Below, piece by piece: positions 62,561 to 62,594 of a stretch of DNA of 64,000 nucleotides. The position numbers were made by a program, and so were the translations under genes. The DNA is taken from assembly GCF_055900595.2 (NCBI RefSeq), contig NZ_CM148325.1; one strand, 5' to 3'. The notes under the pieces were generated by a model. That model saw only the letters and a program-made list of their open reading frames with translations. It did no database searches and was not told the DNA's origin. Numbering within the stretch: the stretch's first letter is position 1; each line of letters starts with the position of its first letter.

Positions 62561-62594
62561 TAAAAAGCGCCATCTTACGATGGCGCGGCTGGAA

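Follow-up and report, generated by a model that had tools for sequence, protein, structure and literature searches.

The 34-bp spacer that separates the convergent genes ydcO and ydcL in the window (the whole 64-kb stretch of DNA analyzed here) is most probably, at roughly 90%, an ancestral junction that was never interrupted, with the insertion sequence IS609 having entered the corresponding site in the ancestor of much of Escherichia coli sensu stricto. The target for this insertion would have been the motif TTTAT at the end of the T-run of the predicted ydcL terminator, with the left end of IS609 inserting 3' of the motif. K-12 would be among the descendants of this ancestor, and the inserted copy would persist in the roughly 60% of complete genomes that are occupied at ydcL/ydcO. 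The window belongs to the sister lineage of E. coli sensu stricto, Escherichia cryptic clade I, which would never have received that copy. The presence of IS609 at ydcL/ydcO is already known and annotated; it is a routine insertion-sequence polymorphism, matters little in itself, and is represented in the window by its ancestral allele. The comparison accounts for the extra C-terminal tyrosine of K-12 YdcO, and the window supplies the sequence of a natural IS609/TnpB target as it was before insertion.

The ydcO-ydcL junction and its counterpart in K-12

The features at the junction are as follows:
61388 to 62560, plus strand: ydcO (BenE-family transporter), 390 amino acids, ending ...ADRNR before the stop codon (open reading frame list and RefSeq annotation of NZ_CP098223.1, which is identical here)
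62595 to 63263, minus strand: ydcL (DUF3313 lipoprotein), 222 amino acids (open reading frame list and RefSeq annotation)
62561 to 62594, no strand: ydcO-ydcL intergenic spacer, 34 bp, between convergent genes, sequence TAAAAAGCGCCATCTTACGATGGCGCGGCTGGAA
62559 to 62560, no strand: empty IS609 insertion point, inside the ydcO stop codon (TA/A) (junction comparison and blastn breakpoints)

The longest open reading frame of ydcO starts at 61331, and its TAA stop codon occupies positions 62558-62560 on the plus strand, facing the ydcL stop codon at 62595-62597 on the minus strand. Gene names were taken from the RefSeq genome NZ_CP098223.1 (strain Z0117EC0005), which is identical to the window over 61000-63990 and in which the pair is flanked by sutR and rlhA on one side and by tehB and tehA on the other. 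Both the open reading frames and this annotation agree with an earlier note, made from the sequence alone, which had placed the end of ydcO at 62560 and that of ydcL at 62595 with a short spacer in between. The encoded proteins are close to those of K-12, with 385 of 390 amino acids identical in YdcO and 220 of 222 in YdcL.

In the annotation of K-12 MG1655 (NC_000913.3), the interval between ydcL (b1431) and ydcO (b1433) holds a feature named "insertion sequence:IS609" at 1503161-1504908 (1748 bp), containing insQ/tnpB (b1432) and the tnpA pseudogene yncK (b4578). The earlier note had placed an IS609-type transposase remnant of K-12 in this neighborhood; the location is right, but the element is no remnant, being full-length with both ends and with only tnpA broken. 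When the whole window was compared with K-12 1498000-1560000 by blastn, collinear blocks of 94-97% identity were obtained in reverse orientation, in which window positions 58223-62559 aligned to K-12 1509241-1504909 and window positions 62560-64000 aligned to K-12 1503160-1501720. Exactly 1748 bp separate the occupied from the empty allele, without any duplication, deletion, or scar. Such an alignment had been proposed as the check on the claim that K-12 carries an element that is missing here, a claim that an equally compact junction in K-12 would contradict; what the alignment returned was a clean absence of the element, and no compact junction was seen in K-12. The interval 62561-62594, to which the claim had been attached, is indeed the spacer, but the insertion point of the K-12 element falls at 62559/62560, one base to the left of it.

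On the minus strand, the window reads GCGCTTTTTAT/TATCGG across the breakpoint (marked by the slash), and the flank on the ydcO side is identical to that of K-12 over 30 nt. Because IS609 interrupts the stop codon of ydcO, the reading frame in K-12 runs one codon into the element and ends TAT TGA (391 amino acids, ...ADRNRY), making K-12 YdcO one C-terminal tyrosine longer than the window protein, whose gene ends TAA (390 amino acids).

That no IS element lies between ydcO and ydcL in the window, as had been noted, is borne out by the length of the spacer and by searches of the 64-kb window for IS609 and InsQ, which gave no match beyond chance. The best blastn match to IS609 DNA (word size 7) was 21 nt long with an E value of 0.09, which is at the level of chance, and the best tblastn match to K-12 InsQ covered 55 amino acids at an unrelated position (E = 0.017). 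The IS609 tnpA (Y1 HUH transposase) is absent from the window, where the only tnpA of the IS200/IS605 type is that of an unrelated IS200 at 9496-10005. Also absent from the window are the left and right ends of IS609 with their subterminal hairpins (CCGGTGCGCCGTAAAACCCC... and ...GGAGGATGTCAA, respectively).

The IS609 target motif and the predicted ydcL terminator

Two further features overlap at the insertion point:
62560 to 62564, minus strand: intact IS609 target motif 5'-TTTAT-3', whose 3' side the left end of the element would abut
62557 to 62586, minus strand: predicted ydcL intrinsic terminator, composed of the hairpin GCGCCATC-GTAA-GATGGCGC (62586..62567) followed by TTTTTATTAT (62566..62557)

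Elements of the IS200/IS605 family insert 3' of a short target, which they do not duplicate; the targets are, for example, TTAC for IS608 and TTGAT for ISDra2. IS609 was compared in six copies at five sites, namely the K-12 copy and five further copies at four distinct chromosomal sites (adjoining yedK; in a TetR/AcrR gene near ytfB, where two strains share the same site; adjoining yfeD; and in a DUF3251 gene). The left end (CCGGTGCGCCGTAAAACCCC...) was directly preceded by CTTAT or TTTAT in all six copies, the right end was ...GGAGGATGTCAA in all six, and a target duplication was found in none. The likeness to empty sites of the IS200/IS605 family extends to the short T-rich motif immediately 5' of the left end, the lack of a target duplication, and a difference between the two alleles of exactly the length of the element. 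From these six copies at five sites only, we infer a target specificity of (T/C)TTAT for IS609. The minus strand of the window, read downward from 62564, is TTTAT followed by TATCGGTTTCTGTCAGCG, and the sequence past TTTAT reads TATCGGTTTCTGTCAG...; the (T/C)TTAT motif is kept where the left end abuts in occupied alleles, which carry no duplication of it.

The target makes up the final stretch of the T-run in the predicted ydcL terminator and overlaps the ydcO stop codon. A terminator scan of the spacer found, on the minus strand, a perfect 8-bp stem in which six of the eight pairs are G-C, a 4-nt loop, and a T-rich tail, with a fold energy of -16.3 kcal/mol (z = -3.4 relative to shuffled sequence). 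The arrangement at 62586..62557 on the minus strand, a G+C-rich hairpin directly before a U-tract, is that of a Rho-independent terminator. The stems are conserved in other Escherichia, in Citrobacter sp. R56, and in Salmonella enterica subsp. diarizonae, and the K-12 hairpin differs from that of the window by one loop base and nothing else. The hairpin and T-run therefore look like the intrinsic terminator of ydcL, a function predicted from sequence. As in Rho-independent terminators of convergent genes, an A-run precedes the stem on the ydcO strand; unlike in such terminators, no T-run directly follows the stem on that strand. For this latter reason, termination in both directions is uncertain, and although possible, it is a less well supported prediction than termination on the ydcL strand. 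An Rfam scan of 62000-63400 (E ≤ 1) returned no RNA family at the ydcO-ydcL junction.

Frequency of the two alleles and origin of the empty site

To what extent the two alleles are shared was determined in a collection of 5,426 complete E. coli genomes with a 240-bp probe centered on the junction. The probe was uninterrupted in 2,043 of the 5,416 genomes that matched it and was split into two places in most of the others. The K-12-type left junction (ydcL/IS609) was intact in 3,267 genomes and the right junction (IS609/ydcO) in 3,265, so that the site is empty in about 38% of the genomes, occupied in about 60%, and in neither state in about 2% (about 100 genomes). In every occupied genome among the matches listed, a 2,991-bp query spanned 4,734-4,749 bp, and the insertion is therefore of the same size in each of these. 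We infer that a single insertion event, or very few, gave rise to IS609 at ydcL/ydcO. The element is present at the site in, for example, K-12, ATCC 8739, an O111:H8 strain, and an O178:H19 strain, which we take to represent phylogroups A and B1; the site is empty in, among others, O157:H7, PMV-1, and 042, presumably of phylogroups E, B2, and D. The distance between ydcL and ydcO, 34 bp when empty and 1,782 bp when occupied, can be used as a simple marker of the two states.

The argument for which state came first is one of parsimony and outgroups. A scan of species representatives with a conserved YdcL peptide pattern gave 91 stretches; 80 loci from these were analyzed, and tblastn found InsQ in none of these 80 ydcL loci of other species. 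Convergent ydcO and ydcL genes with a 34-bp spacer and the same hairpin stems were present in E. whittamii, in Escherichia sp. E1V33, and in two further GTDB species representatives labeled E. coli, and a short spacer with the same stems was present in Citrobacter sp. R56 and S. enterica subsp. diarizonae. At many loci of Citrobacter, Enterobacter, and Kosakonia, 2-3.7 kb of other DNA lies between ydcO and ydcL. E. albertii and Escherichia sp. MOD1-EC7003 were uninformative as outgroups because ydcO did not adjoin ydcL in the DNA retrieved. Because E. whittamii, E1V33, and the two other representatives share the compact junction without insQ, the compact junction is, on outgroup comparison, ancestral in Escherichia, and the K-12 copy of IS609 is derived.

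The main competitor of a never-interrupted junction is one in which IS609 was once at the site and was later precisely excised by TnpA, restoring the original sequence. IS200/IS605 elements excise without leaving a trace, in keeping with the scar-free junction; for the same reason, a site that was never occupied and one that was cleanly excised are indistinguishable by sequence alone. The element is also mobile in the species, being present in 5,015 of the 5,426 complete genomes, at several sites and in a median of two and up to nine places per genome, plasmids included. However, all informative outgroups (E. whittamii, E1V33, and the two other representatives) are empty, as are the best 30 matching genomes, eight clonal relatives included, and, according to the 240-bp probe, EC42405 of clade I. 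Gain followed by loss would, moreover, be an unparsimonious account that invokes two events where none is required, and we regard excision as very unlikely.

Alternatively, the lineage may have acquired its empty allele through homologous recombination with an empty-site donor of a different lineage, and the sequence previously at the site would have been lost. The 3-kb stretch from ydcO to tehB does look mosaic: over 61000-63990, the eight clonal genomes and 2017-02-2CC (98.4%) are followed by E. coli 042 and similar strains at 97.5%, and the clade I genomes with 98.0-98.7% identity over the adjacent 16 kb mostly drop below 97.4% in this stretch and are not among the best 30 genomes listed. 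This pattern hints at recombination around ydcO-tehB within clade I. Such an exchange would alter which empty allele is present but not the fact that it is empty; the outgroup species are empty too, and EC42405 is 100% identical to the window over the 240-bp junction. Import as the source of the empty state is thus highly improbable. An assembly artefact, in which the repeated element was collapsed, was considered since IS elements are often misassembled, but nothing was found in its favor and it is practically negligible, given that eight independently assembled complete genomes have an identical 2,991-bp sequence across the junction, that the junction is likewise uninterrupted in 2,035 more, and that both the ydcO stop codon and the predicted terminator are whole across the join.

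The empty junction could also be a substrate for the second protein of the element. TnpB is an RNA-guided nuclease that recognizes a motif together with its flank, and insQ/tnpB is annotated as intact in every IS609 copy examined. The IS609 tnpA is intact in the O157:H7 copy (ATCC 43888) and a pseudogene in K-12, where yncK has an internal stop, and in several other copies with internal stops or frameshifts. Since the TTTAT motif and the 30-nt flank are identical to those of K-12, the empty site is a sequence that InsQ/TnpB, guided by RNA from the right end of K-12 IS609, would be expected to cut. An Rfam search for this guide RNA at the right end of K-12 IS609 gave only sub-threshold matches (HgcC, 22 bits with a gathering threshold of 50; RAGATH-18, 25 bits with a gathering threshold of 44.9). 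Cleavage by InsQ followed by recombinational repair might then convert empty sites when DNA is exchanged between occupied and empty strains, a form of homing drive that, if InsQ is active, could help explain the occupancy of about 60% even where tnpA is a pseudogene. We consider such a drive improbable, and it is unlikely to matter.

Lineage of the window and other differences from K-12

Over window positions 42000-58000 (16 kb), eight complete genomes are ~100% identical to the window (among them E400634), ten more are 98.0-98.7% identical (EC42405, 98.5%; 2013C-4282, 98.1%), and all others reach at most 96.0%. At a second locus, 11 kb next to oriC and taken from a near-identical genome, these 18 genomes again separate from the rest, whose best match is at most 97.6%. 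Because this unlinked locus singles out the same genomes, the divergence is genome-wide rather than local. Among the complete genomes assigned to Escherichia cryptic clade I in PMC10100065 are EC42405 and 2013C-4282; that study places the clade as sister to E. coli sensu stricto, with average nucleotide identities exceeding 98.3% among its members and 95.9% to E. coli sensu stricto. E400634 has been described as "Cryptic I", OND:H45, ST485 (PMC13064198). The identities over the 16 kb of the window match the published ranges (PMC10100065) and, together with the 11-kb locus of the near-identical genome, identify the source as a clade I strain of the E400634/Z0117EC0005 clone.

The earlier note had taken the missing element, together with the IS200, the vgrG-rhs island, and intact yddL/K/J, as a sign of a different lineage. 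The lineage is indeed different, with 94-97% identity to K-12 and clustering with clade I, but the empty site is a poor marker of it: since 38% of complete E. coli genomes share the empty state, this alone is weak evidence of lineage, and it is the roughly 4% sequence divergence that, at the loci compared, identifies the lineage. The clade I origin is the more useful by-product of the analysis, as it provides the context for every other finding in the window.

Several other differences were observed along the window. An IS200 of ~705 bp lies between yddM and fdnI at 9394-10097, with a tnpA open reading frame at 9496-10005 on the minus strand that encodes a typical IS200 TnpA (MGDEKSLAHTRWNCKYHIVFAPKYRR...). 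Apart from this element, which Z0117EC0005 lacks, blastn identity between the window and Z0117EC0005 is 99.93-99.97%. No complete genome matches the yddM-IS200-fdnI junction at 99% or more over its full length; a single match covers at least 80% of the probe in 303 other complete genomes, with a best identity of 98.4%, and tnpA lies between yddM and fdnI in all 15 of those genomes that were listed. These 303 matches suggest that the yddM/fdnI site is a recurrent or old insertion site.

Two toxin-antitoxin loci also differ from K-12. Directly upstream of yddM, which is annotated as a HigA antitoxin (9103-9387), the window has an intact 92-amino-acid toxin gene at 8825-9103 (RelE/ParE family annotation). 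K-12 lacks ~320 bp at this toxin-yddM locus (window 8825-9387) and keeps only yddM, so that its YddM antitoxin is an orphan. Near 58223, ~445 bp of K-12 (1509241-1509686, comprising hicA and the start of hicB) is missing from the window, and in a near-identical genome RefSeq annotates only a fragment of hicB without its N terminus; the HicAB toxin-antitoxin pair has therefore been deleted in the window.

A 10.7-kb block at 31066-41781 has no counterpart in K-12, where its place is taken by a 7.1-kb block from yncG to pptA (including the rhsE pseudogene, ydcD, yncI, and ydcC). The block is annotated with a type VI secretion Vgr protein, a DcrB-related protein, a 4.6-kb RHS core protein, a putative toxin, and a SUKH-4 immunity protein. 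The genes yddL, yddK, and yddJ, which had been described as intact on first reading, are full-length at 16396-18892. Their K-12 counterparts are short or pseudogenes; the window genes are annotated as encoding an OmpC-type porin (1,101 bp), a hypothetical protein (1,260 bp), and a leucine-rich-repeat protein (1,251 bp). Finally, ydcS is split by a frameshift into open reading frames of 148 and 238 amino acids (55111-56255, minus strand). RefSeq flags a frameshift in Z0117EC0005 too, and ydcS is either a real pseudogene or the product of a shared sequencing error.
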